The notes below the pieces were generated by a model. That model was not told where the DNA came from. It ran no database searches and saw nothing but the letters and a program-made list of their open reading frames with translations. Made by a program: the position numbers and the translations under genes. From an uncultured Spirochaetota bacterium (GTDB lineage Bacteria > Spirochaetota > Spirochaetia > SZUA-6 > Fen-1364): 64,000 nt of DNA. This document shows, piece by piece, positions 4,255 to 26,156 of the stretch. The stretch is from NCBI GenBank assembly GCA_963781885.1, contig CAWAHW010000002.1, positions 147,119 to 211,118 on the forward strand, read 5' to 3'. Each line of letters begins with the position of its first letter. Positions within the stretch are counted from its first letter, which is position 1.

Positions 4255-4264
4255 GCCGTCCTCC

Positions 4265-10176: not shown

Positions 10177-11256
10177 TCACCGGTTGCAGCCGCATGAGGC
10201 GCGGATCTTGAGCTCAGGTGAGGATCTATGGGTCTCGTTCGCGAAAACGCCGTGAGCGGTCATGTCGAGCGCAATGGCTCCCACGATCTCCCCCAGGTGC
10301 CGCGCGCCGGGATCCAACGATGTCATGCCCATCCCAAGGGCGAGGCCGGAGTTTCCATAGCCGATCACCGAGCAGTCCCGTCCGGGTGCGAGCCCGGTCG
10401 AGGTCAGTCCGTGGAGTGCCCCTGCCGCCGTCTCATCCGAGGCACAGAGGAATGCCCGGCATTCAGGCGACCGGGAGAGCATCTGACGACAAGCGTCCTT
10501 TGCGGCGTCCACACCGGGCGCTATGGTTCGCATGAGCGCTGGCTCAACTGACAGCCCGGCCGCGGCCATCTCCTCCTCGTAGCCCTTTCGAAGCTGATCC
10601 ACGGTAAAGCTCGTCTCTGCGGCAAGGAAGGCGATCGATCTGTGCCCGAGATCCTGGAGGTAGCGCACGGCATCACGTGCACCTTTCACGTCGTCCACGA
10701 TGACTTGGGGGGCGCGTGCCGGCTCCCGCAGGCCGCGTACGACGATGGTGTTCCGCAACTCTTCTCCCACCTGCACTATCGACCTGGCCGATCCAGCAGG
10801 CTCGAGGATGACCAGCGACCCGGATTCGACGGCCTGGCCGTACAGAGCCGCTTCCAGGAGGACATCATTGTGATGGAGTGAGACGCGCAGCGGCATGTCC
10901 AGGCTGCGGAGCTGCTCCTCCAATGACTCGAGGATCGCCGCATTCGTCTCATCCATGTGCGCGCAGAGCAGCTGCGCAAACGGGAAATGTGCCGCCCTCC
11001 GCGAAGCGACGGACCTGTCGCGCGAGTAGATGACGAGCGTGCCCTTGCCGCTGTAGCGCTCGATATAGCCCTCGAGCACGAGCTTCGCCAGCGCGTTCCT
11101 GACCGTGAGATGCGTGGTCGCGAACCTGTCCTTCAGCGCGCGCTCGGGCGGGAACCAGTCCCCCTTGCGATACTTGCCGGACCTTATTTCCTCCCTGAGC
11201 TCCAGGTAGATTTTCTCGTAGAGGTACTGGCTGGTTCCCGCGGGTTCCTGCGACAT
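10177..11256 (-). CDS. GntR-family regulator with LacI-type (periplasmic-binding-protein-like) sugar-binding domain
   Basis: GntR HTH (YLYEKIYLELREEIRSGKYRKGDWFPPERALKDRFATTHLTVRNAL) fused to a PBP-type effector domain. It is divergent from the SDR/BMC operon. Confidence 0.8.
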   Translation of the reverse strand: MSQEPAGTSQYLYEKIYLELREEIRSGKYRKGDWFPPERALKDRFATTHLTVRNALAKLVLEGYIERYSGKGTLVIYSRDRSVASRRAAHFPFAQLLCAHMDETNAAILESLEEQLRSLDMPLRVSLHHNDVLLEAALYGQAVESGSLVILEPAGSARSIVQVGEELRNTIVVRGLREPARAPQVIVDDVKGARDAVRYLQDLGHRSIAFLAAETSFTVDQLRKGYEEEMAAAGLSVEPALMRTIAPGVDAAKDACRQMLSRSPECRAFLCASDETAAGALHGLTSTGLAPGRDCSVIGYGNSGLALGMGMTSLDPGARHLGEIVGAIALDMTAHGVFANETHRSSPELKIRASCGCNR

Positions 11257-11346
11257 ATGGCTGCCGGTGGATCTTACTGTAAGATGCGCGGTTTTCGATC
11301 TCAAGGTTCGTCCTTCGCCGCGCATCATATGGCATATTTTCGTTGA

Positions 11347-11440
11347 ATGCTATATAGCGCTTACGAAGTCAAAATATCCATATTAAAAAAAGTCTTGACA
11401 GGTAGGATGTTATGCTATATATAGCGCTATATACAGTGAT
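11347..11440. promoter_or_regulatory. divergent promoter region with two palindromic sites (GCTATATAGC and TATAGCGCTATA); the second overlaps the -10 (TTGACA-17-TATATA) of the SDR/BMC operon
   Basis: Seen directly in the AT-rich intergenic region between the regulator and the first SDR gene. Confidence 0.5.
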
Positions 11441-11457: not shown

Positions 11458-12222
11458 ATGGATCTGGGCTTGAAGGGCAAGACCGCCCTCGTGACGGGCG
11501 GGGGAACGGGGATTGGGGCGGGGATCTGTGAAGCGCTGGCGCAGGAAGGCGTGAACGTCGGGGTCAACTGGATCGTCGGTAAGGACGACGTCACCGCTTT
11601 TGCCGCCCGCTTGAGCCGAACCTACGAAACGGACTGCCGCCCCTTCTATGCAGACGTCTCCAAGCCGGATGACCTGGACGCGATGGTGCGGGAGCTGATC
11701 GCGGCGTACGGTCGCATCGACATCCTGGTGAACAACGCGGGCATCTGGCCCACGGAGGACATCCTCGACATGCCGGACCGCAACTGGGACAAGGTCATCG
11801 GCATCAATCTCAACGGGCCGTTCATGCTCTGCAAGAGGGTCGCGCAGCACATGGTGGCGGCCGGCATCAAGGGGAGCATCGTCAACCTGTCCTCCAAGTC
11901 GGGCATCACGTACAACACGGGCGGTCACGCGCACTACGCGTCGGCCAAGGCCGCGATCATCATGCTCACGAAGTCCCTCCAGCGGGAGCTCGCGCAGCAT
12001 GGCATCCGCGCCAACGCGATCGCCCCCGGCATGGTGCGCACGCCCATCAACGAGGACAAATGGACCGACCCCGAGCTGAAAAAGGCGTACGAGGCGCGCA
12101 TCCCGTCGGGGCGTTTCGCGCTCCCCGTGGAGATCGGCTACGCGGTTGCGTTCCTGGTGTCGGAGAAATCGTTCAACATCATGGGAACCTGTCTCGACGT
12201 CACCGGCGGAATGCTGATATAG
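11458..12222 (+). CDS. SDR-family oxidoreductase (FabG-like)
   Basis: TGGGTGIG Rossmann motif, NNAG, and a YxxxK-type catalytic region (YASAKAA). Confidence 0.85.
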   Translation: MDLGLKGKTALVTGGGTGIGAGICEALAQEGVNVGVNWIVGKDDVTAFAARLSRTYETDCRPFYADVSKPDDLDAMVRELIAAYGRIDILVNNAGIWPTEDILDMPDRNWDKVIGINLNGPFMLCKRVAQHMVAAGIKGSIVNLSSKSGITYNTGGHAHYASAKAAIIMLTKSLQRELAQHGIRANAIAPGMVRTPINEDKWTDPELKKAYEARIPSGRFALPVEIGYAVAFLVSEKSFNIMGTCLDVTGGMLI

Positions 12223-12232
12223 GAGGAAGGAA

Positions 12233-13057
12233 ATGAGCGTGAACCTTTCGGGAAAGACCTGCGTCGTCACCGGCTCGGCAAAGAGCATTGGACTGGGTGT
12301 GGCGGAGATGTATTGCAGCCTGGGGGCAAAAGTGGCCATGATCGATATCAACCCCGACGTCCTGAAGGAAGCCGAGCGGCTGTCGAAGGCGGGGAACGCG
12401 GTCCGGGGCTACATCCTGGACATCACCGATAAGAAGGCGGTGGGGGAATGCTTCCAGGATATCGCAAAGAAGCTGGGCGACGTCTTCGCGCTCGCAAATA
12501 TTGCGGGGGCCGTCGACCAGCAGCCGTTCGAGGAGATTACGCCCGAGCGGCTCGACAAGATGAACAGGATCAATATCAATGGAACGATCTGGTGCGCGCA
12601 GGGCGCGCTCATGACAATGAAGAAGCTCAAGGACGGACGGATCATCAACTTCGCCTCGAAGTCGGGCAAGACGGGCTCCGCCATCATGGCCGCCTACTCG
12701 GGGGCAAAGGGCGCGATCATCTCGATCACGCACGCCATGGCCTTCGAGCTCGCGAAGGAAAACATCAAGGTGAACTGCCTCTGCCCCGGCATCGTCGAGA
12801 AGACGGGAGTCTGGGGCGCGGTGAGCAAGGGCTACGTGGAGAACCTCAAGATGGAGGAGGAGGCCGTGGTGAAGCAGTTCACCTCAAAGGTCCCTCTCGG
12901 GAGGCTCTGCAGGATCGATGACGTGGTGGCATTCGTGAGGTTCCTGACGGTGGACGGGGACTACTGCACCGGCCAGGCTTTCAATGTCAGCGGCGGACGG
13001 GAAATGCACGTAGGAACCACAGAGGAAGGGGGATGGAATGGCGGAGAACCAGTTTGA
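12233..13057 (+). CDS. SDR-family oxidoreductase
   Basis: TGSAKSIG glycine-rich motif and YSGAKGA catalytic motif. The 3' end overlaps the first BMC-H start by about 20 nt. Confidence 0.85.
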
Positions 13058-13331
13058 TGCTCTGGGCATGATCGAGACGCGCGGATTCGCGGCGATGGTG
13101 GAAGCGGCGGACGCGATGGTGAAGGCCGCGAAGGTCGATCTTGTGGGCTACGAGAAGATCGGCGGCGGGTACGTGACGGCGGTCGTGCGCGGCGACGTTG
13201 CCGCCTGTCGCGCGGCGGTGGATGCCGGTGCGCGTGCGGCGGAGAAGGTGGGAGAGATCGTGAGCACGCACGTGATCCCGCGGCCGCATGAAAGCGTGGA
13301 CGCGGCGCTGCCGTTGGGCAGGAAGGGGTAG
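13038..13331 (+). CDS. BMC shell protein, hexamer-forming (BMC-H, PduA/EutM family)
   Basis: [57 protein letters not shown] is a canonical BMC-H sequence. Confidence 0.9.
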
Positions 13332-13334
13332 GCC

Positions 13335-13976
13335 ATGGCGGTAGACCTCAGGACCTACGTATTCCTCGATTCGCTGCAGCTTCAGAACGCATCGTTCATC
13401 GCCACCGTGTCCAAGGGGTATTACCCCATCGGCATGCAGGCCTGCTGCGTCATCGAGATCGCCCCGGGCATCGAGATCAACAGGCTCACCGATATCGCGC
13501 TGAAGGCCACGAACGTGACCCCCGGCCTCCAGATCGTCGAACGAGCCTACGGACTTCTGGAGGTCCACTCGGACAGCCAGGGCGATGCGCGCATGGCCGG
13601 CGAGGCGGTGCTGCGCGAGCTGAAAAAGACCGAGCAGGATCGGCTGAAGCCGCGGGTGATGACCAGCCAGCTCATCAAGAACATCTCCGACCATCACGCG
13701 CAGCTCATCAACAAGGTGCGTCACGGCAACATGGTGCTGCGCGGCGACACGCTGTACGTGCTGGAGGTGGAGCCCGCGGGCTACGCCTACTACGCGGCCA
13801 ACGAGGCGGAGAAGACCTCGAAGGTGAACATCATCGAGGTGCTGGGCTTCGGGGCATTCGGCCGGGTGTACATCGCCGGGGACGAGGCGGAGGTCATCGA
13901 GGCGCGCAAGGTGGTGGAGTCGCGTTTGGGCGGATTGAGCGGCCGCGAGATCGCGGCAAATACCCAGAGGATATAA
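13335..13976 (+). CDS. BMC shell protein with tandem BMC domains (BMC-T)
   Basis: 213 aa with two BMC-like repeats. The second carries [23 protein letters not shown]. Confidence 0.7.
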
Positions 13977-14027
13977 GAGCCCAGGTTTGGGCGGGCATTC
14001 GAGCCGTGGATAAGGGGAAGGAAACTA

Positions 14028-14347
14028 TGGCGGAGAACCAGTTTGACGCTTTGGGCATGATCGAGACGCGCGGATTCGCGGCGATGGTGGAAGCGGCGGA
14101 CGCGATGGTGAAGGCCGCGAAGGTCGATCTTGTGGGCTACGAGAAGATCGGCGGCGGGTACGTGACGGCGGTCGTGCGCGGCGACGTTGCCGCCTGTCGC
14201 GCGGCGGTGGATGCCGGTGCGCGTGCGGCGGAGAAGGTGGGAGAGATCGTGAGCACGCACGTGATCCCGCGGCCGCATGAAAGCGTGGACGCGGCGCTGC
14301 CCCTCGGGCGGCAGCCCAGCGGCCCGAAACCGGCGGCGAAGAAGTAG
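14028..14347 (+). CDS. BMC-H shell protein, near-identical duplicate of 13038..13331
   Basis: The same 93-aa core. The DNA is about 99% identical over about 280 bp and only the C-terminal tail differs. Confidence 0.9.
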
Positions 14348-14385
14348 CGGCGCGCGGGCGACGTGCCCGCGGAAGGGATGCGGTC

Positions 14386-14706
14386 ATGGTACTGGCGCGG
14401 GTGAAAGGCACGGTGGTGAGCACGCACAAGCCTTCCTCCATGGAAGGGCTGCGGCTGCTCCTGCTGGAGAAGGTGGACGCGGTGACCCTCAAGGGAAAGG
14501 GCGACTTCGTCGTCGGCATCGACAGCGTGGGCGCGAATGCCGGGGAGATCGTGTTCTACGTCACGGGATCCAGCGCGCGCATGACGGACGCCACGAAGGG
14601 CAAGCCGTCGGATGCCACGATCATCGCGATCGTGGATGCCATCGAGAAGGACGGCGCGCTCACCTACGACAAGGCACGCGGGGACGCCGCGGCAGGCCCG
14701 GCATGA
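14386..14706 (+). CDS. BMC vertex protein (BMC-P, EutN/CcmL/PduN family), paralog 1
   Basis: MVLARVKGTVVSTHK...GEIVFYVTGSSAR...IIAIVD. Confidence 0.85.
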   Translation: MVLARVKGTVVSTHKPSSMEGLRLLLLEKVDAVTLKGKGDFVVGIDSVGANAGEIVFYVTGSSARMTDATKGKPSDATIIAIVDAIEKDGALTYDKARGDAAAGPA

Positions 14707-14996
14707 ACCTTGCGCGGGTGCGGGGCACGGTGGTTGCCAGCGTTCGATCGGACAAGGTGGAAGGGGCGAAGTGGCTCCTCATCGAGGACTGCGACCAGTC
14801 GGGCAAGGGACGCGGCGAGTACCTCGTGGCGCTCGACATGGTGGGCGCCAACCGGGGCGAGCTCGTGCTCGTCACCCAGGGAAGCTCCTGCCGTTGGACG
14901 TACCGCACGGAGGACCGGCCGATGGACACCCTTGTCGTCGCGATCGTGGATGCCATCGACCAGCGCGGGGCCGTGGTCTATGCCGCGGCTCACTGA
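14703..14996 (+). CDS. BMC vertex protein (BMC-P), paralog 2
   Basis: MNLARVRGTVVASVRS...GELVLVTQGSS...VVAIVDAID. ATGA overlap with paralog 1. Confidence 0.8.
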   Translation: MNLARVRGTVVASVRSDKVEGAKWLLIEDCDQSGKGRGEYLVALDMVGANRGELVLVTQGSSCRWTYRTEDRPMDTLVVAIVDAIDQRGAVVYAAAH

Positions 14997-15006
14997 GGGA
15001 TGACGC

Positions 15007-16455
15007 ATGGCAAACCCGGCTGACGAGATTCGACAGATCGTCGCGGAGGTCCTGAAGAGCGCCGACGTCGCGGCGATGCTCAACGGGACGGGCGCGGCAG
15101 CGGGCGCGGCGCGCCCGGGCGTCGCCTTCGGCAATGGCGTGTTCGCCGACATCGACTCCGCGGTCGGTGCCGCCGCGGCGGCACAGAGGGAGCTTGCGGA
15201 GCTGCCGCTGGACACCCGCCGCCGCATGATCGACGCGATGCGTCACGCGGTCATTGCCGCCAACGATTCCTTCAGCGCCGAGGCCGTGGCGGAGACCGGC
15301 CTGGGCAACGTGCGGGACAAGAAGGTCAAGAACGAGCTCGCGGCGGCAAAGACCCCCGGCGTGGAGGACGTCGAGCCCTCCGCATACTCCGACGAGCACG
15401 GCCTCACCATCACGGAGCGCGCGCCGTATGGCGTGATCGGCGCGATCACGCCGGTGACCAATCCCACCGCCACGATCACGAGCAATTCCATCGGCATGAT
15501 CTCCGCGGGCAATTCCGTTGTTTTCAACGTGCACCCGAACGCAAAGGGGGTCTCCAATCGGCTTGTTGCGCTTCTCAACGATGCCATCGCGGGCGCGGGC
15601 GGGCCGCGCAACCTCCTCTGTGCCATTGCCGAGCCCACCATCGAAAGCGCGGGCGAGCTGATGAAGCATCGCGGTGTGGCGATCCTCGTCGTCACCGGCG
15701 GCCCCGGCGTGGTGAAGGCGGCCATGGGCAGTGGCAAGAAGGCAATCTGCGCCGGTCCGGGCAACCCTCCCTGTGTCGTGGACGCTACCGCCGACATGTC
15801 GAAGGCCGGTCGGGACATCGTGGCAGGGGCCAGCTTCGACAACAACGTGGTCTGCATCTGCGAGAAGGAAGTGCTCGCCGTGGATTCCATCGCGGACAGG
15901 CTGAAGCAGGAGATGAGGGCCAACGGCGCCTTCGAGCTCAACCCGAGCCAGCGTGACGCGGTGACCCGTCTGGTGATCCCCTCGCCCAAGGGGCCGCGCG
16001 TCGAGAGCGCGCCGAACAAGGACATGGTGGGAAAGGACGCGGCGTTCATCGCACGCGCGGCCGGCATCGAGGTTCCCCCCTCCACAAGGCTCCTCCTGAT
16101 GGAGGTGGATCGTGATCACCCCCTGGTGTGGAGCGAGCAGCTCATGCCCGTGCTGCCCCTCGTGCGCATGCAGAGCGCCGACGAGGCCATCGATTTTGCC
16201 GTGGCGGTGGAGCATGGGTTCCGGCATACGGCCATGATCCACTCCCACGACATCGAGAAGCTTTCCCGGATGGCGCGCCTCATGAACTGCTCCCTGTTCG
16301 TGAAGAATGGTCCTTGCTACGCCGGTCTCGGCCAGGGCGGGGCAGGGTTCACCTCGTTCACCATCGCCAGCCCCACCGGCGAAGGGCTCACCCGTGCGCG
16401 CACGTTCACCCGTGAACGGCGCTGCACGCTGGTGGACTATTTCAGGATCGTGTAG
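15007..16455 (+). CDS. CoA-acylating aldehyde dehydrogenase (EutE/PduP family) with N-terminal encapsulation-peptide-like helix
   Basis: Catalytic region SFDNNVVCICEKE. The N-terminal MANPADEIRQIVAEVLKS is an amphipathic helix. Confidence 0.9.
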   Translation: MANPADEIRQIVAEVLKSADVAAMLNGTGAAAGAARPGVAFGNGVFADIDSAVGAAAAAQRELAELPLDTRRRMIDAMRHAVIAANDSFSAEAVAETGLGNVRDKKVKNELAAAKTPGVEDVEPSAYSDEHGLTITERAPYGVIGAITPVTNPTATITSNSIGMISAGNSVVFNVHPNAKGVSNRLVALLNDAIAGAGGPRNLLCAIAEPTIESAGELMKHRGVAILVVTGGPGVVKAAMGSGKKAICAGPGNPPCVVDATADMSKAGRDIVAGASFDNNVVCICEKEVLAVDSIADRLKQEMRANGAFELNPSQRDAVTRLVIPSPKGPRVESAPNKDMVGKDAAFIARAAGIEVPPSTRLLLMEVDRDHPLVWSEQLMPVLPLVRMQSADEAIDFAVAVEHGFRHTAMIHSHDIEKLSRMARLMNCSLFVKNGPCYAGLGQGGAGFTSFTIASPTGEGLTRARTFTRERRCTLVDYFRIV

Positions 16456-16457
16456 CC

Positions 16458-16742
16458 ATGAAGCTGGGACGCGTGATCGGCAGGGTGGTCTGCACGCAGA
16501 AGATGGAGTGTTTCGAGGGATTGAAGCTCCTCCTCGTGCAGCCGGTGGATGAGGACGGCAAAGACGCCGGCAGTCCCCTTGTGGCCTTCGACGTGGCACG
16601 GGCGGGGGAGGGGGACCTCGTGATGTTCGAAGCGGGAAAGGAAGCTGCGCAGGCGAACCCCAACGGCTGGTTCAATCCCGGCGACGCGGCGATCCTTGGG
16701 GTCGTGGATGAGGTATCGACAGGACCGCGGAGGGGCCGATGA
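16458..16742 (+). CDS. BMC vertex protein (BMC-P), paralog 3
   Basis: MKLGRVIGRVVCTQK...GDLVMFEAGKEA...AILGVVDEV. Confidence 0.8.
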   Translation: MKLGRVIGRVVCTQKMECFEGLKLLLVQPVDEDGKDAGSPLVAFDVARAGEGDLVMFEAGKEAAQANPNGWFNPGDAAILGVVDEVSTGPRRGR

Positions 16743-17047
16743 CGCTTGCGAAGGTGACGGCGAATGTCGTTTCCACGGAGAAGCATGCCCACTACCGGGG
16801 TCGCAAGATCCTCGTGGTCCAGCCGGTGGGGCCCGATGGGACGCCGAAGGGGAAGAGCTTGCTCGCGGTGGACGGCGTGCAGGCGGGAATCGGCGACCTC
16901 GTGCTCGTTGTGGACGAGGGCGGCTCCGCGCGCGCGGTGATCGGCGATGAGACCGCGATGACCATCCGGACTGCGATCTGCGGGATCGTCGACCGCATTG
17001 ATGTCGCGGAAGATCCCGCGACATCAATTGACATCGAGAACCGGTGA
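16739..17047 (+). CDS. BMC vertex protein (BMC-P), paralog 4
   Basis: MTLAKVTANVVSTEK...GDLVLVVDEGGSAR...AICGIVDRID. 4-nt overlap with paralog 3. Confidence 0.75.
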   Translation: MTLAKVTANVVSTEKHAHYRGRKILVVQPVGPDGTPKGKSLLAVDGVQAGIGDLVLVVDEGGSARAVIGDETAMTIRTAICGIVDRIDVAEDPATSIDIENR

Positions 17048-17054
17048 GGGAGAA

Positions 17055-17522
17055 GTGAGCGGCAAAGATAACGTGCGCAGCGTGGCCATCGGCTCCGACC
17101 ACGGGGCATTCAGCCAGAAGGAAGCGCTGAAGACATACCTGCAGACTGCGGGCTACCGGGTCGTGGACGTCGGCTGCTTCGACAAAGGTCCGGTTGACTA
17201 CCCGGACATCGCCGTGGCGGTGTGCCGCCACGTGGTGAGCGGGGACTGCGAACGGGGGATCGTGCTGGACGGGGCCGGGATCGGCTCCTGCATCGCCGCG
17301 AACAAGATCAAGGGGATCCGCGCGGCTCTCTGCTACGACATCCGCACCGTCATCAACAGCCGGGAGCACAACAACGCCAACGTGCTCACCCTCGGCGGAC
17401 CGCTGCACGACGCGGGGCAGCTCGCCGACATGGCGCGCACGTGGCTGGAGACCCGCTTCGGCGGCGGGCGGCACATCATCCGGGTGAACAAGATCATGGC
17501 AATCGAACGAGGAGGCGTGTGA
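17055..17522 (+). CDS. rpiB: ribose-5-phosphate isomerase B / RpiB-LacAB family sugar-phosphate isomerase
   Basis: VAIGSDHGAF...DGAGIGSCIAANKIKGIRAAL. A GTG start with RBS gagggagaa is inferred, and the start is uncertain. Confidence 0.8.
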   Translation: MSGKDNVRSVAIGSDHGAFSQKEALKTYLQTAGYRVVDVGCFDKGPVDYPDIAVAVCRHVVSGDCERGIVLDGAGIGSCIAANKIKGIRAALCYDIRTVINSREHNNANVLTLGGPLHDAGQLADMARTWLETRFGGGRHIIRVNKIMAIERGGV

Positions 17523-17527
17523 GACTC

Positions 17528-18319
17528 ATGGACCAGAACCAGTTGATCGAAAAGATCGTGAGCGAGGTCATGGCGCGGATGGCCGCCGCTCCTGCCGCGG
17601 GGAAACCGGCGGAATCGGGCGCCACCAGCGCGTCGGCCGTCCCCGCCCTGGGGTCGGCGGACATCGCGAAATACATCGACCACACCATGCTGCGGCCCGA
17701 GGCTCCCACCGCCGCGTTCGACAAGCTCTGCCAGGAGGCGCTGCAGTATCACTTCTTTGCAGTCTGCGTGAACTCCTGTCGCGTTTCCTACGTGGCGCGC
17801 AAGCTCCAGGGCACGGGCATCAAGGTCGCCTCCGTGGTCGGTTTTCCCCTCGGTGCCATGACGAGCCGGTCCAAGGCCTTCGAGACGCGGGAGGCCATCG
17901 AGGACGGAGCCTCCGAGATCGATATGGTCATCAATATCGGCCTGCTGAAGTCGGGCGATCATCGCGGCGTGGAAGAGGATATTCGCGCGGTGCGCCGTGC
18001 CACCCGGGGGAATACGATCCTGAAAGTGATCATTGAAACGGCCCTGCTTACCCAGGACGAGAAAGTCATGGCGTGCGAGCTTTCAAAGAAGGCTGGCGCC
18101 GACTTTGTGAAGACCTGTACCGGCTTCTCGGGCGGCGGCGCAAGCGTGGAGGACATTTCCCTGATGCGCCGCGTCGTGGGCAGCGAGATGGGGGTGAAGG
18201 CGAGCGGCGGCGTGCGCACGTACAAGAGCGCGCTCGCGTTCATCGGCGCGGGGGCAAGCAGGCTGGGCTGCGTGGCGAGCGTCGCCATCGTCACCGGTGC
18301 GGAGGGATCGGGGAGCTGA
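17528..18319 (+). CDS. deoC: deoxyribose-phosphate aldolase (DeoC) with an N-terminal EP-like helix and an Ala/Pro linker
   Basis: DHTMLRPEA...VCVNSC...GFPLGA...EIDMVINIG...KVIIET...FVKTCTGF...VKASGGVRT. N-terminal MDQNQLIEKIVSEVMARM then AAAPAAGKPAESGATSASAVPA. Confidence 0.85.
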   Translation: MDQNQLIEKIVSEVMARMAAAPAAGKPAESGATSASAVPALGSADIAKYIDHTMLRPEAPTAAFDKLCQEALQYHFFAVCVNSCRVSYVARKLQGTGIKVASVVGFPLGAMTSRSKAFETREAIEDGASEIDMVINIGLLKSGDHRGVEEDIRAVRRATRGNTILKVIIETALLTQDEKVMACELSKKAGADFVKTCTGFSGGGASVEDISLMRRVVGSEMGVKASGGVRTYKSALAFIGAGASRLGCVASVAIVTGAEGSGS

Positions 18320-18337
18320 CTAGCCCCCGCAAACCCC

Positions 18338-19048
18338 ATGGCACTCCTGATCCCGTCGATTCTTTCCGCCGATTTCACGCGACTCGGCGATGAGCTGCGC
18401 GCAGTGGAGGCGGCCGGCGCAGACTGGATCCACGTCGACGTCATGGACGGGCATTTCGTTCCGAACCTCACCATGGGCCCGCTGGTCGTGGAGGCCGTGC
18501 GCCGGGTGACGCGGATCCCCATCGATGCCCACCTCATGATCGAGAACCCTGATCGGTTCATCGAGCGATTCGCCGAGGCGGGGGCCACGCACATCAGCGT
18601 GCACGCGGAGACCGCCGTCCATCTGAACCGCTCACTCCAGCTCGTGCGGTCGTGCGGCGCGCATCCCGGGATCGCTTTGGGGCCCGCCGCGCCCCTGTCG
18701 CTTGTCGAGTGGTCGCTGGACTACGCGGATTACGTTCTGCTCCTCGCGGTGAATCCCGGTTTCGGCGGGCAGGATTTTCAGCCCTGCGTGCTGGAAAAGA
18801 TCCGCGCCTTTTGCGCCGAGATCCGGCGCCGGGGACTCTCGACAACCATTCAATCCGATGGCGGCATCAACCTGGGAACCATCGCGGATTTCGCGGCGGC
18901 CGGTGTGGATGCATTCGTGGTTGGATCGGCGTTGTTCGGAAGCGGCGATTACCGCGCCACCCTGGCCGCGATGCGGCAGAAGGTGGAGCGCGCGGCGGGG
19001 CAGACCCCCGCGGTTGCCAGCCGCGGCGGCGCGGGGATCGGTCGATGA
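18338..19048 (+). CDS. rpe: ribulose-phosphate 3-epimerase
   Basis: HVDVMDGHFVPNLTMGP...NPGFGGQ...SDGGIN. Confidence 0.9.
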   Translation: MALLIPSILSADFTRLGDELRAVEAAGADWIHVDVMDGHFVPNLTMGPLVVEAVRRVTRIPIDAHLMIENPDRFIERFAEAGATHISVHAETAVHLNRSLQLVRSCGAHPGIALGPAAPLSLVEWSLDYADYVLLLAVNPGFGGQDFQPCVLEKIRAFCAEIRRRGLSTTIQSDGGINLGTIADFAAAGVDAFVVGSALFGSGDYRATLAAMRQKVERAAGQTPAVASRGGAGIGR

Positions 19049-19914
19049 TCGCGATTGCCAACGGGTTCTGGGGTGCCGCGATCTCGGAGACGGGCGCCGA
19101 GATGAAGAGCCTCGCCAATCTCAAGACCGGTCAGGAGCACATCTGGCACGGCGATCCGACATGGTGGAACGGCTCAGCCCCGGTGCTTTTTCCCATCATC
19201 GGGGGGCTGAAAGACGGCGCGTACACATTCGAAGGGAAGCAGTACAAACTGCCGTCTCATGGGTTCGCGCGGGGCAGCGAGTTCATGGTGACCCGGGCCG
19301 GGTCGGACTTCGCGGAGCTCGTGCTCGCGTCCAACCCGAAGACACGGGAAAACTACCCCTTCGATTTCTCCCTGAAGGTGTCTTTCGGTCTAGAGCGCTC
19401 GGGCGTCGCCATTCGATATGAAGTCACCAACACGGGGTCGTCGCGCATGTTTTTCTCCATCGGGTCGCATCCCGCGTTCGTGGTTCCGTTTGCCGGGGGC
19501 GCGCTTGAAAACTACTACGTGCTCTTCGAGCGCGAGGAGAGCATCGAGCGCTGGTTCTTCAAGGACGGCATCATCCTGGCGGGCAAGACCGAGGAGGTGC
19601 TGGACAACAGCCGCACCCTCAACCTCACCCGATCGATGTTCGACGACGGCATCATGATCTTCAAGCACCCGGCCTCGCGCGAGTTCGCCATCGCCAACAG
19701 CCGCGGCGCGCACGCGGTCCGGGTGGTGACCGAGGGTGTGCCCTACCTGGGGATCTGGTCGAAGCCCGGAGGTGCGCCCTTTCTCTGCATCGAGCCGTGG
19801 CATGGCATCCCCGACATGAGCGACGCGACGGGAAACCTCGTGGAGAAGGAAGGCATCGTCGGGCTCGACCCCCGCGCGATCTTTTCGACCGGTTATCGCG
19901 TGGAGATCGAATAG
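19045..19914 (+). CDS. aldose 1-epimerase-family protein (galactose-mutarotase-like)
   Basis: 289 aa beta-sandwich mutarotase-like sequence. ATGA overlap with rpe. Confidence 0.75.
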   Translation: MIAIANGFWGAAISETGAEMKSLANLKTGQEHIWHGDPTWWNGSAPVLFPIIGGLKDGAYTFEGKQYKLPSHGFARGSEFMVTRAGSDFAELVLASNPKTRENYPFDFSLKVSFGLERSGVAIRYEVTNTGSSRMFFSIGSHPAFVVPFAGGALENYYVLFEREESIERWFFKDGIILAGKTEEVLDNSRTLNLTRSMFDDGIMIFKHPASREFAIANSRGAHAVRVVTEGVPYLGIWSKPGGAPFLCIEPWHGIPDMSDATGNLVEKEGIVGLDPRAIFSTGYRVEIE

Positions 19915-19985
19915 CCTCACTCCCGCCGAAACCTCCGATTTGTTCGCGCGCGGGGTATTCCTTATATTAGGCGGGGGATCAACAC

Positions 19986-21020
19986 ATGAGTGACTACCTG
20001 CCTTCCGCCAATCGCTACGCGTCAATGCTGTACAGAAGATGCGGGAAAAGCGGCCTGCGGCTGCCTGCTCTTTCCCTGGGACTGTGGCATAACTTCGGTG
20101 GCGCGACGCCTCAGGAAAATGCCCGGCGGATGATCTTCCGTGCGTTCGACCTCGGCATCACGCATTTCGACCTGGCAAACAATTACGGCCCTCCCCCGGG
20201 GTCCGCGGAGGAGAACTTCGGAAAGATCCTCGCCCAGGATCTTGCCGGTCACCGCGACCAAATGATCGTCTCCACGAAGGCCGGCTACCTCATGTGGCCG
20301 GGCCCGTACGGGGAATGGGGCTCGCGAAAATACATCCTGGCGAGCCTCGATCAAAGCTTGAAACGGATGGGGCTCGACTACGTCGATATCTTCTATTCCC
20401 ACCGCCTGGACCCCGATACGCCGCTGGAGGAGACGCTCGGCGCGTTGCACAGCGCCGTGCAGCAGGGCAAGGCCTTGTACGTGGGCGTCTCTTCCTACTC
20501 CGCGGCCATGACGCGCAAGGCCTCGACGATTCTCCGGTCCCTCGGGACCCCGTGCCTCATCCACCAACCCTCGTATTCCATGCTGAACCGGTGGATCGAG
20601 AAGGGGCTGCTGGACGTCCTGGGCGAGGAAGGGATCGGCTGCATCGCCTTCTCGCCCCTGGCGCAGGGGATGCTTTCGGACAAATATCTTGCCGGCATTC
20701 CGGCCGGCACGAGGGCCGGGACGCAGGGCACGGCGCTGGACAAGAAGCTGTTGACGGAGGAGAACCTTCGACACATCAAGGCGCTGAATACAATCGCGAA
20801 GGCGCGCGGGCAGAGCCTCTCCCAGATGGCGCTCGCGTGGGTCCTGCGCGACACACGCGTCACCTCCGCACTGGTGGGAGCGAGCAGCCCGGCGCAGATC
20901 TCCGAGAGCGTCGCGGCCCTCTCGAACCTTCGTTTCACCACGGAGGAGATCGCGCGGATCGACAAGGACGCCGTGGAGGGCGGCATCAATCTTTGGGCGC
21001 AATCCAGCGACGCCGGCTGA
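19986..21020 (+). CDS. aldo/keto reductase (YghZ/Tas-like, L-glyceraldehyde-3-phosphate-reductase type)
   Basis: LPALSLGLWHNFG...DLANNYGPPPGSAEENFG...YVDIFYSHRLD. Confidence 0.85.
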   Translation: MSDYLPSANRYASMLYRRCGKSGLRLPALSLGLWHNFGGATPQENARRMIFRAFDLGITHFDLANNYGPPPGSAEENFGKILAQDLAGHRDQMIVSTKAGYLMWPGPYGEWGSRKYILASLDQSLKRMGLDYVDIFYSHRLDPDTPLEETLGALHSAVQQGKALYVGVSSYSAAMTRKASTILRSLGTPCLIHQPSYSMLNRWIEKGLLDVLGEEGIGCIAFSPLAQGMLSDKYLAGIPAGTRAGTQGTALDKKLLTEENLRHIKALNTIAKARGQSLSQMALAWVLRDTRVTSALVGASSPAQISESVAALSNLRFTTEEIARIDKDAVEGGINLWAQSSDAG

Positions 21021-21108
21021 CGGTGACCGGCGAAGTGCGGTTTTTCCACCCGACGCATTGACGCGGCCCGTTGATCCGAATAACCTTGCGCTCGAAGGAA
21101 CCACGTTG

Positions 21109-21405
21109 ATGGCAATCGACCAGAACCGCTTCGAGGCCCAGGTGAGCGAGGTCCTCGCGTCATTCGATTTCAATCTCGTTCACCGGGTCATGGAATTTCT
21201 AGACTGGACGTGGGCGAATCTCGATCGCATCCCGACGAAAAAGGAGCTTGTGGCCGAGGCAGGGCGGCTCCTGAGGGAGCTGGCGGGATCCCCCGGGGTC
21301 CTGGGCAGCGGCGGTCTGCGGGCGAGCTTCAAGGAAGACGGGACGCTCAGCCTCAAGTTCATCGTGAGCGAGAGCTGGTCCGATCTGGCCGAGGACGCCC
21401 GTTAG
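21109..21405 (+). CDS. hypothetical protein
   Basis: ORF 21058..21405 with no recognisable motif. The start is uncertain. Confidence 0.4.
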   Translation: MAIDQNRFEAQVSEVLASFDFNLVHRVMEFLDWTWANLDRIPTKKELVAEAGRLLRELAGSPGVLGSGGLRASFKEDGTLSLKFIVSESWSDLAEDAR

Positions 21406-21470: not shown

Positions 21471-22325
21471 ATGAAGGATCGCAGTCGTATCAAGAAGCCC
21501 GTTCGCACCTATTCGGCACCCGCGGTCGACAGGACGCTCGACATCCTGGAATACATGGCGGCGCACCCGCGTCCCTTCGGTACCACGGAGCTCTCACGCA
21601 GCCTCAACATACCGATCAATTCCGTATTCCGCATCCTCAAACGCCTGACGGACCGCGCCTATACGGTGCAGGATCCCTTTTCCGACGGCTACCAGCTCAG
21701 CACGAAGGTTTTCACCCTCGGCATGAGCCTGTATGTCAGGTTCGAGCTGCGCCAGCGCGTCCGGCCTCATCTCGAATGGCTCTGCCGGGAAACCGAGGAG
21801 ACCTGCCAGCTCCAGGTCCCGCAGGGGGACAAGATGCTGGTGCTGGACACCATCAGCCCCGAGGTCCAGTACTACATCCGGGTGGTGCCGGGCGGACTCG
21901 TTCACTATCACCCCAATGCCTTTGGAAAGGCGGTGCTCGCCTTCGATACCGAGGAGGAGATCAAGCGCCTCATCCCGCCGAGGCTGCCGGGGTTGACGCC
22001 GCACACCATCGTCCTGCGCACGGAACTCTTGAAGCAGCTCGAGAACGTGCGCAGGACGGGTCTCGCGTACGACAACGAGGAATACAACGAGGGGATCAGG
22101 TGCGTCGGCGCGCCGGTCTTCGACGTGGAAGGCAAGGTCGTGGCGGGTCTCGGGGTCACGGGGCTCGTGTTCACCTTCCGCAACCAAAGGCTGGCGGCGT
22201 TCGAGCAGCTCGTGCTCGAATGCGCCTTCCGCGTCTCCCGGGACATCGGGTACACGGGCGGCTTCTTCACCGACAAGATCGCGCGCCCCTTTTCCAACCA
22301 GCTCCAGAAGGCCGGCGGCTCCTGA
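21471..22325 (+). CDS. IclR-family transcriptional regulator
   Basis: N-terminal HTH (LDILEYMAAHPRPFGTTELSRSLNIPINSVFRILKRL) and a C-terminal IclR effector domain. Confidence 0.85.
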   Translation: MKDRSRIKKPVRTYSAPAVDRTLDILEYMAAHPRPFGTTELSRSLNIPINSVFRILKRLTDRAYTVQDPFSDGYQLSTKVFTLGMSLYVRFELRQRVRPHLEWLCRETEETCQLQVPQGDKMLVLDTISPEVQYYIRVVPGGLVHYHPNAFGKAVLAFDTEEEIKRLIPPRLPGLTPHTIVLRTELLKQLENVRRTGLAYDNEEYNEGIRCVGAPVFDVEGKVVAGLGVTGLVFTFRNQRLAAFEQLVLECAFRVSRDIGYTGGFFTDKIARPFSNQLQKAGGS

Positions 22326-22338
22326 TCTTCAGGCCTGC

Positions 22339-23376
22339 TCAGGCCCTGATCGGGTAACGGCCGAGCTCCCGCCACGTCGTGAGCAACGCTCGATAATTCT
22401 CCGGCGTGACCGACGAGTGGATTGAGTTGCTCGACGAGAGGATGAAACCTCCGCCCGGCGCGCCGACCCGCAGCGCATGGCGCGTGGCGGCGGCGACTTG
22501 GTCGGGCGTGCCGAGGGTCATCAGGTGCGCGCAGTCTACATTGCCCTTGAGCGCAATGAGCGCCCCCAGCTTTGCCTTCACTTCCGCGAGGTCCATGCCG
22601 GCGACGGGATCGATGGGATCAAGGCAGTCGATGCCCGATTCCACGATCATGTCCATGAGCGGCCAGATCATGCCGTCGGTGTGCTTGATGACACGGAGGC
22701 CCAGCGCCTTGAACCCCTGCACGACGCGACGCAGGCCGGGCGCGAACAAGGCGCGAAAGTGCGCCGGTGACATCAGAGGCCCGCTGTCCCCGGCATAGTC
22801 GTCCCCCGTGTAGACGACCTTCGCGCCCCGTTGCGCGACCTCCTTCGCCATCGCCAGGTTGACGTCCACCGACATCTCGACCATGGCGGCGACAAGGGTC
22901 GGCTCGGAGACGATTGCCATGAGGAGGTTTTCGTATCCCATGAGGGAGCGGGGGATGGAAAAGACGTCGTTCAGATGGACGATCACCGCCTTCCGCCCGG
23001 CGTAGTCGCGGAGCGTCTTCTCCACGTGGAAGTAGCGTCCGGCGGCATGCGGATCAGGCGGTACGTAGCGCTCGAAGTCCCGCATGGTCCGTATCGGCGA
23101 TTCGACCTCTATGCCATGCTCCTCCGCTGACTCCTGCACGGTGTATCCCCACTCCGTGCGCCATCGCCCCGGTCCGGCGGGCGCCCTGGTCCAGTCGGGC
23201 TCCGCGATCACGGCGTCAAGCCCCATGCGGTCGGCGAAATCATTCAGCGAGATGCATCCCGGGGCGAGGGCTGCGCGCACCTTCCTGTCGATGGCCCATT
23301 CGAAATGGGGCACCCTGTCGGGCTCCTTGCGATCCAGCACCCGAAGGATCCGTTCCTCACCCGTCATGTCCGCCAT
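22339..23376 (-). CDS. uroporphyrinogen-decarboxylase (URO-D) family protein (MtaA/CmuA-like, not in a heme context)
   Basis: 345 aa TIM-barrel URO-D-like sequence. It is convergent with iclR and divergent from the SDR-led sugar operon. Confidence 0.75.
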   Translation of the reverse strand: MADMTGEERILRVLDRKEPDRVPHFEWAIDRKVRAALAPGCISLNDFADRMGLDAVIAEPDWTRAPAGPGRWRTEWGYTVQESAEEHGIEVESPIRTMRDFERYVPPDPHAAGRYFHVEKTLRDYAGRKAVIVHLNDVFSIPRSLMGYENLLMAIVSEPTLVAAMVEMSVDVNLAMAKEVAQRGAKVVYTGDDYAGDSGPLMSPAHFRALFAPGLRRVVQGFKALGLRVIKHTDGMIWPLMDMIVESGIDCLDPIDPVAGMDLAEVKAKLGALIALKGNVDCAHLMTLGTPDQVAAATRHALRVGAPGGGFILSSSNSIHSSVTPENYRALLTTWRELGRYPIRA

Positions 23377-23521
23377 TCGGTGCCTCCGATGATGATTTCA
23401 CCACCCAAGTAAAAAATATCATATCATATTTAAAATCTACTTGACAAATGGAATTTTACAAGTCATAGTCCGATTTGGTTTGATCCTGACAGATGATGCG
23501 TGAACGAGGGAGGTGCTTTGC

Positions 23522-24271: not shown

Positions 24272-24272
24272 C

Positions 24273-24782: not shown

Positions 24783-24894
24783 ATGCGCAATGTCATTTTT
24801 TATTTAGAATACGATTGGATTTTGGAGGTCGGTCTTGCTTAATTTATTTTGTAACAGTACTTTAGGACATTTGATATTTGAAATAAGATTTTTC

Positions 24895-24923
24895 TTGACA
24901 AATATGTATGCGCACAGCAGAAT
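24895..24923 (+). promoter_or_regulatory. candidate promoter of the ABC importer genes (TTGACA-17-CAGAAT)
   Basis: It lies in the 267-bp AT-rich gap upstream of the binding-protein gene. Confidence 0.4.
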
Positions 24924-25049
24924 GCCATCAAGAAAACCATCTTGAAAAAAAGGAGGTGGGAGAACGCAGCAGAACAACGGATCAAGGGCTTGGATTGTGA
25001 AAGTTGAGTGTACCGGTTTCCACAAACGTATCGAGGAGGGAGAGATCAC

Positions 25050-26075: not shown

Positions 26076-26111
26076 CTTGATCGAAGCCTAAGAAAGCAGC
26101 AGTCTACCGAA

Positions 26112-26136: not shown

Positions 26137-26156
26137 CGCAGCAGGGGGGCGGATGC

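Follow-up and report, generated by a model that had tools for sequence, protein, structure and literature searches.

The window analysed here is a stretch of 64,000 nucleotides (64 kb) from a high-GC Spirochaetia genome. Between the ATG of SDR1 (11458) and the stop codon of the AKR gene (21020) it carries 15 co-directional genes, or 16 if the conserved 115-aa ORF that follows is counted, and not the seventeen of the preliminary description (Table 1). Intergenic gaps across the operon range from -20 to +71 nt. The 4-nt overlaps, said to be many, are indeed present but number three (P1/P2, P3/P4 and Rpe/mutarotase), with one of 20 nt between SDR2 and BMC-H1. All 15 ORFs are intact, with a Shine-Dalgarno-like sequence 5' of each and a strong GC3 bias. 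Gene identities were checked by Pfam, NCBIfam and PDB searches, which bore out all the gene calls and their order as described before: both BMC-H and all four BMC-P proteins matched their domain models, the BMC-T protein was recognised by the CcmP model and PDB matches, each enzyme matched its own family, and the AKR passed the L-glyceraldehyde-3-phosphate reductase model. The core cassette runs BMC-H, BMC-Tdp, BMC-H, two BMC-P, CoA-acylating AldDH, two BMC-P, RpiB and DERA.

Table 1. Genes and sequence features at the microcompartment locus (positions in the 64-kb window).
Feature	Position	Strand	Evidence
Divergent AraR-like regulator (GntR-type HTH, LacI/periplasmic-binding-type sugar sensor)	10177-11328	-	PF00392 + PF13377 + PF00532
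Candidate promoter, TTGACA	11396-11401	+	Sequence
Perfect 16-bp palindrome TATATAGCGCTATATA, ~25 nt upstream of SDR1	11418-11433		Inverted-repeat search
SDR1, glucose-1-dehydrogenase/FabG-like class	11458-12222	+	PF13561/PF00106; NF005559 215.3 bits (cut-off 215)
SDR2, like acetoin reductase, L-iditol and sorbitol-6-P dehydrogenases	12233-13057	+	PF00106/PF13561, NCBIfam
BMC-H1 hexamer	13038-13331	+	PF00936 108.7 bits; KAAK/PRPH interface motifs
BMC-Tdp, double-stacking tandem-domain trimer (CcmP/HO-T3-like)	13335-13976	+	Glu69-Arg70 pair
BMC-H2 hexamer	14027-14347	+	PF00936 108.4 bits
BMC-P1 pentamer (vertex)	14386-14706	+	PF03319 82.4 bits
BMC-P2 pentamer	14703-14996	+	PF03319 89.6 bits
CoA-acylating AldDH (PduP/EutE class)	15007-16455	+	PF00171; NCBIfam NF011927 646 bits
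BMC-P3 pentamer	16458-16742	+	PF03319 83 bits
BMC-P4 pentamer	16739-17047	+	PF03319 83.6 bits
RpiB-family sugar-phosphate isomerase homologue	17055-17522	+	PF02502 165 bits; NF004051 159 bits
DERA (DeoC), signature enzyme	17528-18319	+	PF01791; TIGR00126 271.5 bits (cut-off 117)
Rpe, ribulose-phosphate 3-epimerase	18338-19048	+	PF00834 248 bits; TIGR01163 271.9 vs 212.6 bits
Aldose 1-epimerase family (mutarotase-like)	19045-19914	+	PF01263 93.8 bits; PDB 3dcd/3q1n 'galactose mutarotase related enzyme'
AKR, L-glyceraldehyde-3-phosphate reductase family	19986-21020	+	PF00248; NF007388 509 vs 448 bits
Conserved 115-aa hypothetical protein	21058-21405	+	tblastn 66-80% identity in L081/82, L001, L003
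Context outside the BMC operon: IclR regulator, MtaA/URO-D-like gene (-), then sugar genes	21471-34433		

The two BMC-H genes show 2 mismatches over 275 bp of DNA, and their proteins differ only in the C-terminal tail. The four BMC-P paralogues are 32-46% identical (46% between BMC-P1 and BMC-P2), and their order is kept in all related loci. The 213-aa BMC-T protein scored 24.0 bits with PF00936, just below the cut-off of 24.5. Its best PDB matches are HO BMC-T3 (5v76, E 5e-72) and CcmP (5lsr/4ht5, E 2e-69), with CsoS1D (3f56) also matched, its NCBIfam CcmP score is 275 bits, and its orthologues have a precomputed match to PF27545 (CsoS1D_N). These matches make it a tandem-domain BMC-Tdp despite the sub-threshold score.

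The core enzymes, DeoC, RpiB and an acylating AldDH, are the signature by which sugar-phosphate-utilising (SPU) microcompartments are known, and they mark the locus as a metabolosome; the earlier reading was right on this, as on DERA followed by AldDH as the expected core chemistry. The best PDB match of the AldDH is a BMC-associated AldDH (5jfl, E 1e-137), and the two align at the catalytic Cys. Its N-terminus holds an encapsulation-peptide-like helix, EIRQIVAEVLK, in a segment with a hydrophobic moment above that of 96.6% of shuffles. The DERA, whose start is most likely the ATG at 17528, matches a solved DERA (8qps, 269 bits, E 3e-79), and the Asp/Lys/Lys residues are invariant in the alignment. 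Its N-terminal motif, MDQNQLIEKIVxEV, is kept in BMC-linked orthologues from four phyla and is absent from the non-BMC locus L013 and from housekeeping DERAs, whose matches start at residue 41-47. The AlphaFold2 model has a helix at residues 3-19, a linker at 19-36 with pLDDT <50 and then a confident barrel; the hydrophobic-moment test on this N-terminus was not significant, with 20% of shuffles as high.

The start of the RpiB homologue is most likely the GTG at 17055. Alignment to 3he8/3ph3 revealed that its catalytic Cys is replaced by Asp and its Thr by Ala, that is, DGAG for CGTG, and DGAG is present in all BMC-linked homologues. The protein has no N-terminal extension; since the catalogue gives one to only about one third of SPU2 RPIs, RpiB here is within the known range. 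In PMC11585597, an SPU RPI without the active-site Cys has almost no R5P activity and forms a complex with DERA. RpiB here is more likely a DERA-binding or packaging partner, or an enzyme for an unknown sugar phosphate, than a ribose-5-P isomerase.

Cleavage of 2-deoxyribose-5-phosphate (dR5P) has no role for Rpe or RpiB, and PMC11585597 sees no obvious role for RPI under the dR5P model. If the aldolase instead cleaved a hydroxylated pentose-5-phosphate (e.g. ribose-5-P or arabinose-5-P) to glyceraldehyde-3-phosphate (G3P) and glycolaldehyde, which AldDH would convert to glycolyl-CoA, RpiB and Rpe would be true steps from xylulose-5-P, and both enzymes, together with a neighbouring pentulose operon that ends in D-xylulose-5-P, would be tied directly to the compartment. 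We consider this very unlikely: the aldolase scores far above the cut-off of the deoC equivalog model, its catalytic domain shares 55-61% identity with Bacillales and Clostridia DERAs outside any BMC cassette, the DERA of SPU6 was shown to be active on dR5P (PMC11585597), RpiB lacks both the catalytic Cys and Thr, and most related loci have no Rpe.

The placement of the proposed dR5P-cleaving compartment among the catalogued types rests on the published description (hosts, enzymes, shell complement) and on gene order. In the catalogue (Sutter et al. 2021, PMC8217296 Supplementary Data 2; also PMC11585597), SPU2 occurs in Spirochaetes and, with the same cassette, in KSB3; it has either one BMC-H or two that are alike, four BMC-P, a CcmP/HO-T3-like BMC-Tdp and a BMC-Ts, its enzymes are only AldDH, PF01791 DERA and PF02502 RPI, usually without PTAC or AlcDH, AldDH and DERA carry an N-terminal encapsulation peptide (EP), and an RPI without catalytic Cys stands beside DERA. 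The locus had been thought to match no standard named BMC type; its core fits this description nearly point for point, and an identical ten-gene core order was found in loci of Spirochaetota, Victivallales, KSB3 and Planctomycetaceae. The core matches a known subtype, and no missing core enzymes turned up beside it. PTAC and AlcDH were not found in the locus or nearby; their absence is typical of SPU2 and not an anomaly. The sole departure from SPU2 is that neither BMC-Ts nor PduS was found across the 64-kb window, and BMC-Ts may be encoded as a satellite gene at another place in the genome.

The lack of the Ts/PduS pair, PTAC and AlcDH would also suit a decaying or non-functional remnant. This is hardly credible, given that every ORF is intact and has a Shine-Dalgarno-like sequence and strong GC3 bias, that the catalytic residues are conserved and that many independent metagenome assemblies keep the same arrangement, with proteins 75-99% identical. 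In metagenomes, the DERA of this locus has more than 120 protein clusters at 67% identity or above. The cluster is real and intact, and is one for a protein-shelled bacterial organelle of the catalogued SPU2 type.

Two other SPU types share part of these features. SPU3 has AldDH, RPI and DERA, a CcmP-like Tdp and no PTAC, and its hosts are Planctomycetes and Lentisphaerae, in which we found the same gene order as here (L007, L009). Its description, however, gives it a single BMC-H and a triplet of BMC-P, with RPI often fused to DERA; in the present locus BMC-H genes number two and BMC-P genes four, and RPI and DERA are encoded separately. The SPU6 BMC of Chloroflexi is given as the only SPU studied biochemically (Dwyer et al. 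2024, PMC11585597). Like the present locus it has a signature DERA with a helix at the N-terminus, a GntR-family regulator beside the operon and an RPI in which Asp replaces the catalytic Cys (the same DGAG occurs in the Anaerolineales locus L071). It differs in its AldDH, which falls in another AldDH branch and bears its EP at the C-terminus, in a Tdp of the 'blue' clade, in having a single BMC-H and a triplet of BMC-P, and in the long EP at the N-terminus of its RPI.

The core is flanked here by two SDRs, Rpe, a mutarotase, an AKR and an AraR-like regulator, none of which is described in the available catalogue text (PMC8217296; PMC11585597). SDR1, SDR2, Rpe, the mutarotase and the regulator are common to the closest Spirochaetia loci. 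The mutarotase gene is the most widely conserved accessory, found after DERA or DERA and Rpe in L001, L003, L004, L005, L007, L009, L081/82, L083 and L085; SDR2 homologues are encoded 5' of the shell genes in L002, L003, L007, L009 and L081, and both genes extend to Victivallales and Planctomycetaceae loci. Rpe follows DERA only in L001, L003, L081/82 and L013. No AKR orthologue was found in any related locus. The AKR gene sits between the mutarotase gene and the 115-aa ORF, which are adjacent in L081 (where the ORF is a 98-aa gene call), L001 and L003, and is a strain-specific insertion, seen in this genome only.

The close spacing and shared direction of these genes and the shell genes, and their absence from the available catalogue text, could point to a new functional type in which Rpe, the mutarotase, SDRs and AKR are encapsulated for a chemistry unlike that of any catalogued subtype. 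This idea is largely refuted and we give it very little weight. The core matches SPU2, four phyla keep it in synteny while lacking most of the extra genes, core-flanking positions hold quite different genes in other relatives, Rpe is confined to the closest relatives and the AKR to this genome. Encapsulation-type N- or C-terminal extensions were found on none of SDR1, SDR2, Rpe, the mutarotase and the AKR, and the tail of SDR2 is not conserved (274 aa here, 259 aa in L081). The extra sugar enzymes are flanking accessory genes outside the core cassette, and therefore do not make a new organelle type; they are probably cytosolic, on the sugar supply or product side.

A GntR/LacI-type regulator had been placed in the locus. 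Its domains match, but it is divergently transcribed and lies outside 11458-21020; an orthologue occupies the same position in L081/L082 and L003. The palindrome upstream of SDR1 has a half-site copy at 11349-11362, and its core, TATAGCGCTATA, occurs once in the window (expected 0.01). It is kept at the equivalent position only in the regulator-bearing loci L003, L081 and L082. The operon is probably controlled by this AraR-like sugar-sensing regulator through the conserved palindrome as a putative operator.

Downstream of the operon, the sugar genes comprise SDR3, a DUF4867 cupin and an RbsB-like ABC sugar transporter, followed by two FGGY kinases, an AraD-like class II aldolase/epimerase and an L-ribulose-5-P 3-epimerase, and they look like a pentulose/pentitol (L-xylulose-type) route to D-xylulose-5-P. 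In close relatives the same SBP (74-92% identity), SDR3 and DUF4867 adjoin the BMC core. Known deoxyribokinases are of the PfkB type. None of the genes found in the 64-kb window encodes a deoxyribokinase, phosphopentomutase or nucleoside phosphorylase, so the window does not show where dR5P comes from.

For the same organelle, the main input might be a free sugar taken up by the cell (2-deoxy-D-ribose, or a derivative of a pentose or pentitol) and not dR5P derived from DNA or nucleosides; the mutarotase would anomerise the sugar, the SDRs modify it and the neighbouring kinases phosphorylate it, while the regulator would sense it. We regard this as possible, though clearly the less probable supply. 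It is consistent with a mutarotase gene 3' of DERA in most related loci, across three phyla, with the LacI-type sensor domain of the regulator, with the same RbsB-like transporter beside the core in L081, L003, L004, L085 and L001, and with sugar-sensing chemoreceptors adjacent in L083 and L085. FGGY kinase orthologues (L005, L007, L009), SDRs, a Zn-ADH and an MFS transporter lie beside the core in Victivallales and Planctomycetaceae, and L013 has a shell-less SDR1-SDR2-DERA-Rpe operon. Against it, the window has no PfkB-type deoxyribokinase, the nearby kinases are of the FGGY type, typically for ketoses and polyols, and the L-xylulose-type route does not yield a 2-deoxy sugar. The flanks also vary: in L086 Maf and a nucleotide phosphodiesterase stand there instead, and transporters of the nucleoside:H+ symporter family are encoded in L007 and L009, all of which fit a nucleic-acid route. 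In favour of the free-sugar supply, annotations of deoxyribose utilisation clusters elsewhere place a deoxyribose mutarotase, deoM, beside deoK (PMC3899980). The enterobacterial deoQKPX/deoC system, which has no compartment, likewise combines DERA chemistry with a pathway-associated mutarotase-family gene (deoM/deoX annotation, PMC3899980) and a sugar-responsive repressor, but its operon lacks a shell and an acylating AldDH, and has a PfkB deoxyribokinase, not found in the present locus.

Whatever supplies the dR5P, its cleavage and acetyl-CoA formation in a shell is the most likely mechanism, and we infer encapsulation, substrate and flux as follows. Two near-identical BMC-H hexamers, four divergent BMC-P pentamers and the CcmP-like gated BMC-Tdp would form a closed shell, to whose lumen DERA and AldDH would each be sent by an N-terminal amphipathic helix on a flexible linker. 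dR5P would pass into the shell and be cleaved by DERA to G3P and acetaldehyde, and this volatile, toxic aldehyde would be converted by AldDH to acetyl-CoA inside the shell, with reduction of NAD+ to NADH. Because no PTAC or AlcDH is encoded, acetyl-CoA, CoA and NAD(H) would have to be exchanged by way of the large gated pore of the Tdp, as PMC11585597 proposes for SPU types with Tdp but without PTAC. The locus is very probably that of an SPU2-type sugar-phosphate-utilising BMC in a high-GC Spirochaetia genome.

Across the window the G+C content ranges from 58 to 70%, with a strong GC3 bias that allowed the real genes to be separated from many spurious ORFs. The gene order SDR, SDR, BMC-H, BMC-T, BMC-H, BMC-P, BMC-P, AldDH, BMC-P, BMC-P, RpiB, DeoC, followed by Rpe, aldose 1-epimerase (mutarotase) and AKR, is exactly that of the preliminary description, and a Pfam scan recovered all the assignments proposed there well over threshold, with the 213-aa BMC-T as the sole exception. 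Seventeen co-directional genes with many 4-nt overlaps had been reported; we count 15, with three such overlaps plus one of 20 nt. Spacing in the row ranges from -20 to +71 nt, and Shine-Dalgarno-like sequences precede most of its genes. The regulator with a GntR-type HTH and a LacI-type sensor does exist, although it is divergent to the row. A scan for promoter and terminator consensus sequences stayed near shuffle expectation and does not define the operon ends, and no Rfam family matched anywhere in the window.

The locus shows the clustering of shell genes with enzymes that marks a bacterial metabolosome: two PF00936 proteins (108 bits each) and four PF03319 proteins (82–90 bits) are all encoded inside 4 kb. 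The BMC-H pair is identical through residue 94 and contains the KAAK and PRPH motifs. The four BMC-P proteins share 32–46% pairwise identity and are placed as two adjacent pairs, and the order P1-P2-AldDH-P3-P4 is kept in all relatives. The 213-aa protein scored 24.0 bits against PF00936 (cut-off 24.5). Its best PDB relative is the Haliangium HO BMC-T3 (5v76, E 5e-72), further relatives are CcmP (5lsr, 4ht5), HO BMC-T2 and CsoS1D, and its orthologues have a precomputed PF27545 CsoS1D_N match. With the NCBIfam CcmP model it reaches 275 bits; the equivalog cut-off of 340 is not attained, which is what one expects of a relative that is non-carboxysomal. By homology it is clearly assigned as a tandem-domain, double-stacking BMC-Tdp of the CcmP-like major clade.

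The two BMC-H genes, located on either side of the Tdp gene, show 2 mismatches over 275 bp at the DNA level, and their identity begins exactly at the ATG. Among the related loci from other genomes and metagenome contigs, designated here by L numbers, the BMC-H paralogues of L003 (92%) and L085 (93%) are closer to one another than to their orthologues, and those of L005 and L083 are about 75% identical. This pattern suggests recurrent gene conversion between the BMC-H copies.

The aldehyde dehydrogenase belongs to the CoA-acylating PduP/EutE class (646 bits with NF011927); its most similar PDB entry is the BMC-associated 5jfl, with which the catalytic Cys aligns. Ahead of its domain there are 45 N-terminal residues containing the helix motif EIRQIVAEVLK. 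The aldolase scored 271.5 bits with the deoC equivalog TIGR00126 (cut-off 117) and 269 bits with the solved DERA 8qps, and its residues D132, K195 and K224 (counting starts at the ATG given in the table) are invariant in alignments of 9 and 26 sequences. Its N-terminal extension carries the motif MDQNQLIEKIVSEVMARM, which is conserved in the BMC-linked orthologues of Spirochaetota, Victivallales, KSB3 and Planctomycetaceae, with a variable linker after it, and is missing in the non-BMC orthologue of L013 and in housekeeping DERAs, whose matches begin at residue 41–47. AlphaFold2 predicted a helix at residues 3–19 and a disordered linker at 19–36, where pLDDT is <50; the TIM barrel is modelled with confidence (mean pLDDT 86.8). 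It did not predict here the two beta strands of the DERA extension described by Dwyer et al. (PMC11585597). A hydrophobic-moment shuffle test supported the AldDH N-terminus (p ~0.03) and did not support that of DERA (p ~0.2); the DERA helix is called on conservation and AlphaFold2, not on the hydrophobic moment. The pattern of hydrophobic residues in both extensions is that of typical encapsulation peptides (EPs), and encapsulation of the two enzymes is predicted.

The RpiB gene (PF02502, 165 bits) has its stop codon 5 nt ahead of the DERA start. Its product reads DGAG where active enzymes have CGTG, so that the catalytic Cys is replaced by Asp and the neighbouring Thr by Ala. The same type of replacement, D-G-A/V/D-G for C-G-T-G, is present in all the BMC-linked RpiB proteins recovered (L001–L012, L056, L071, L072 and L081–L085), including Anaerolineales, Paenibacillus and Acidimicrobiia loci. 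In the account of Dwyer et al. (PMC11585597), the SPU isomerase has no active-site Cys, isomerises R5P barely or not at all, and binds DERA in a 1:1 complex. The replacement of the catalytic motif, published for SPU6, is now extended to SPU2-like and other loci.

With shell genes, DERA, RpiB and acylating AldDH all confirmed, the locus had been correctly recognised as a metabolosome of the sugar-phosphate-utilising (SPU) type. Its gene combination had also been described as outside the standard named types, which the catalogue of Sutter et al. (PMC8217296) does not bear out: apart from the BMC-Ts, the core fits the published description of SPU2, one of the seven SPU subtypes defined there. According to its text, SPU2 occurs mainly in Bacteroidetes and Spirochaetes, and also in KSB3 and other candidate phyla. 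Its enzymes are AldDH, PF01791 and PF02502, with PTAC, AlcDH or TPI in few loci, and EPs are reported for every AldDH, for some half of the DERAs and for one third of the RPIs. Its shell is described with a BMC-P triplet plus one extra copy, a CcmP-like Tdp (HMM name 'ccmPlike-HoT3like') and a PduT-like BMC-Ts, and a PduS homologue is listed in roughly one locus in four (PMC8217296). As far as these descriptions go, the window locus shares with SPU2 the Spirochaetes host, the EP-like segment on AldDH, the enzyme set limited to AldDH, PF01791 and PF02502, the four BMC-P, the CcmP-like Tdp and a near-identical BMC-H pair; BMC-Ts, absent from the window, is the only one of the SPU2 features compared in which it differs. 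SPU3, for which a single BMC-H and three BMC-P are given, and SPU6, with a C-terminal AldDH EP and a Tdp of another clade, fit less well because the BMC-H and BMC-P numbers, the AldDH EP position and the Tdp clade differ. Two general SPU traits of the published accounts are also found: DERA is the universal signature enzyme with an N-terminal helix (PMC11585597), the PF02502 isomerase adjoins DERA in all but SPU5 and some SPU4, and in the window locus RpiB adjoins such a DERA and carries the Cys-to-Asp change.

Pfam scans of all GC3-supported genes in the window revealed neither PduS, PduL, Pta, Fe-ADH or TPI nor a second tandem-BMC protein, and PF06130, PF01515, PF00465 and PF00121 had no match among the scanned genes. 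An iterated HMM search in all six-frame ORFs of the 64 kb returned only three BMC-domain ORFs, and neither Ts nor PduS was found in the flanking sequence covered for the relatives in Spirochaetia, KSB3 and Planctomycetaceae. A satellite Ts could lie elsewhere in the genome, since some SPU2 loci are divided over two or three genomic places (PMC8217296). The KSB3 bin L008, whose study series also yielded a catalogued SPU2 genome, has a synteny identical to the window core. By published description and synteny, we assign the locus as a probable further member of SPU2 and not as a new organelle type. On this assignment it is an SPU2 locus with no local Ts, whose accessory genes are partly lineage-specific and partly strain-specific.

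The nearest DERA relatives in species-representative genomes belong to peat and soil Spirochaetia MAGs (78–86% identity), followed by Victivallales, KSB3 and Planctomycetaceae (63–66%), and the protein database holds more than 120 clusters at least 67% identical to the window DERA. A tblastn search with all window proteins showed the same order of the ten-gene core in all related loci, with one BMC-H or the Tdp sometimes displaced. The metagenome contig L081/L082, whose DERA is 91% identical, equals the window in organisation from the regulator to the downstream ABC transporter, except that AKR is absent. The mutarotase follows DERA directly or past Rpe in L001, L003, L004, L005, L007, L009, L081/82, L083 and L085, and is, together with an SDR2-like gene, the only accessory gene shared across phyla. 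SDR1, Rpe, the AraR-like regulator and a 115-aa ORF are common only to the closest Spirochaetia. AKR has an orthologue in no related locus and is an insertion specific to the window genome, because its two neighbours are adjacent elsewhere; the conserved small ORF stands directly after the mutarotase in L081, L001 and L003. None of the accessory proteins (SDR1, SDR2, Rpe, mutarotase, AKR) has a conserved terminal extension, so nothing speaks for locating them within the shell. In the supplementary text of the catalogue, as available and apart from its diagrams, there is no mention of PF01263, PF00834, PF00106 or epimerase (PMC8217296).

Coordinates and gene content of the features in the window and in related loci
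Locus	Position	Strand	Feature
Window	10177-11328	divergent to row	Regulator, GntR-type HTH and LacI-type sensor
Window	11349-11433		Region with the palindrome and its half-site copy, the latter closer to regulator gene
Window	11458-21020	+	Gene row, SDR1 to AKR
Window	13038-13312	+	BMC-H gene
Window	14027-14301	+	BMC-H gene
Window	17528	+	ATG of DERA
Window	19986-21020	+	AKR, L-glyceraldehyde-3-phosphate reductase family
Window	21058-21405		Conserved small ORF
Window	22339-23376	-	MtaA/CmuA-like (URO-D family) methyltransferase homologue, kept between IclR regulator and SDR3 in close relatives
Window	23513-34433		Neighbouring operon: SDR3, DUF4867 cupin, RbsB-like ABC transporter, two FGGY kinases, AraD-like class II aldolase/epimerase, L-ribulose-5-P 3-epimerase
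Window	34528-37514	-	CoA-enzyme-activase gene (BcrAD_BadFG + DUF2229), apparently split into overlapping ORFs 34528-35874 and 35532-37514
Window	47170-57319		Amidohydrolase, TetR regulator, xanthine-dehydrogenase-family FAD and molybdopterin subunits, ornithine/aspartate carbamoyltransferase-like gene
L003	1876-1887		Palindrome core
L081/L082	3880-3891		Palindrome core
L007 (Victivallales)	1218-4280		PduS homologue paired with PduT-like BMC-Ts; also DeoR regulator
L007 and L009	downstream of DERA		Zn-ADH, SDR, nucleoside:H+ symporter-family transporter, FGGY kinase(s), SGL-type lactonase
L013 (Spirochaetaceae)	1300-4269		Compact operon SDR1-SDR2-DERA-Rpe, no shell genes; DERA of 221 aa without N-terminal helix
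L083			SDR3 and DUF4867 directly upstream of shell genes; SorC regulator, Zn-ADH, FGGY kinase
L085			Sugar-sensing chemoreceptor and ABC transporter
L086	4221-6623		PF01663 nucleotide pyrophosphatase/phosphodiesterase and Maf after core, replacing sugar genes

Since the neighbours differ between relatives, the core behaves as a conserved cassette in a variable sugar/nucleoside context. The L013 operon could represent the accessory pathway in an ancestral or a shell-less form, and the phosphodiesterase and Maf of L086 fit a reading in which SPU compartments serve nucleic-acid salvage. L007 was considered for a fusion of RpiB with DERA, as would be typical of SPU3; this was rejected, the two genes being in different reading frames.

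The 129-nt divergent intergenic region contains a TTGACA box and, some 25 nt upstream of SDR1, TATATAGCGCTATATA, which is a perfect palindrome of 16 bp. The 12-nt core of the palindrome is unique in the window (0.01 expected), and among 86 loci retrieved it was found only in L003 and L081/L082, in the corresponding place; the AraR-like regulator is shared by precisely this set of loci. We consider TATATAGCGCTATATA a good candidate operator of this regulator.

The best-supported model joins the gene identities, residues, synteny and predicted DERA helix established here to encapsulation, substrate, flux and regulation as taken from the family literature. 2-Deoxyribose-5-phosphate (dR5P) would enter the shell and be cleaved by the EP-tagged DERA to G3P and acetaldehyde, which the EP-tagged AldDH would convert to acetyl-CoA. 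The Tdp would be the exchange route for products and cofactors, RpiB would act mainly as a partner of DERA, and the flanking enzymes would be cytosolic. PTAC-less SPU types are described as usually having a Tdp, and acetyl-CoA could cross the shell by its large gated pore (PMC11585597).

In Spirochaetia, Victivallales and Planctomycetaceae, the SPU2 core repeatedly lies inside a sugar-handling module, with a mutarotase straight after DERA, SDR/Zn-ADH dehydrogenases, kinases of the FGGY type and a sugar transporter, either ABC or MFS. In the clade of the window, a putative sugar-sensing AraR-like repressor with a conserved candidate operator comes in addition. The main alternative to the model concerns the supply and leaves the organelle the same: the mutarotase, the sugar transporters, the chemoreceptors and the sugar-sensing regulator suggest that a free sugar is taken up. 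The evident candidate is deoxyribose, since annotations of deoxyribose regulons elsewhere show a mutarotase beside a kinase (PMC3899980); however, the kinases near the core are of the FGGY type, and no PfkB (deoxyribo)kinase was found in the window. A phosphopentomutase or nucleoside phosphorylase was not found there either. The neighbouring operon looks like an L-xylulose, pentulose or pentitol route to D-xylulose-5-P judging from its genes; Rpe fits this pentulose/pentitol theme, and neither the operon nor Rpe leads to a 2-deoxy sugar. The SBP, SDR3, DUF4867 and FGGY genes of the operon are found again next to the BMC core of other genomes, other phyla included. The aldolase closely resembles bona fide DERAs, which makes it unlikely that it splits hydroxylated pentose phosphates. 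It also seems rather doubtful to us that this widespread organelle takes as its native substrate a free (deoxy)pentose from outside, or else a sugar phosphate of pentitol origin, in place of DNA-derived dR5P, and that the Asp-variant RpiB, together with Rpe, is catalytic on some sugar phosphate.

For the class II aldolase of the operon, a role as the BMC enzyme that supplies the aldehyde, of the kind seen in PVM or SPU5, was considered and rejected: it has no extension after start-codon correction, its top score is L-ribulose-5-P 4-epimerase-like, and an L-ribulose-5-P 3-epimerase adjoins it. A sulfoquinovose pathway via DUF4867 was dropped, since no other annotated gene of the window matches the sulfoglycolysis families of the paper used for comparison. 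In the CoA-enzyme-activase gene, the ATPase domain is N-terminally truncated, and the split may come from a frameshift or from an error in assembly, or may mark a pseudogene. About 30 kb off the BMC locus, the genes with xanthine-dehydrogenase-family subunits may form a cluster for the catabolism of purines or nucleobases.

Few metabolosomes are as widespread as the SPU compartments. Their published biochemistry so far covers one enzyme pair only, from SPU6 (PMC11585597). The locus adds an intact, well-resolved SPU2 example from high-GC peat/soil Spirochaetia, and its candidate regulator-operator pair and reproducible sugar-gene neighbourhood could help to identify the physiological substrate of SPU compartments.
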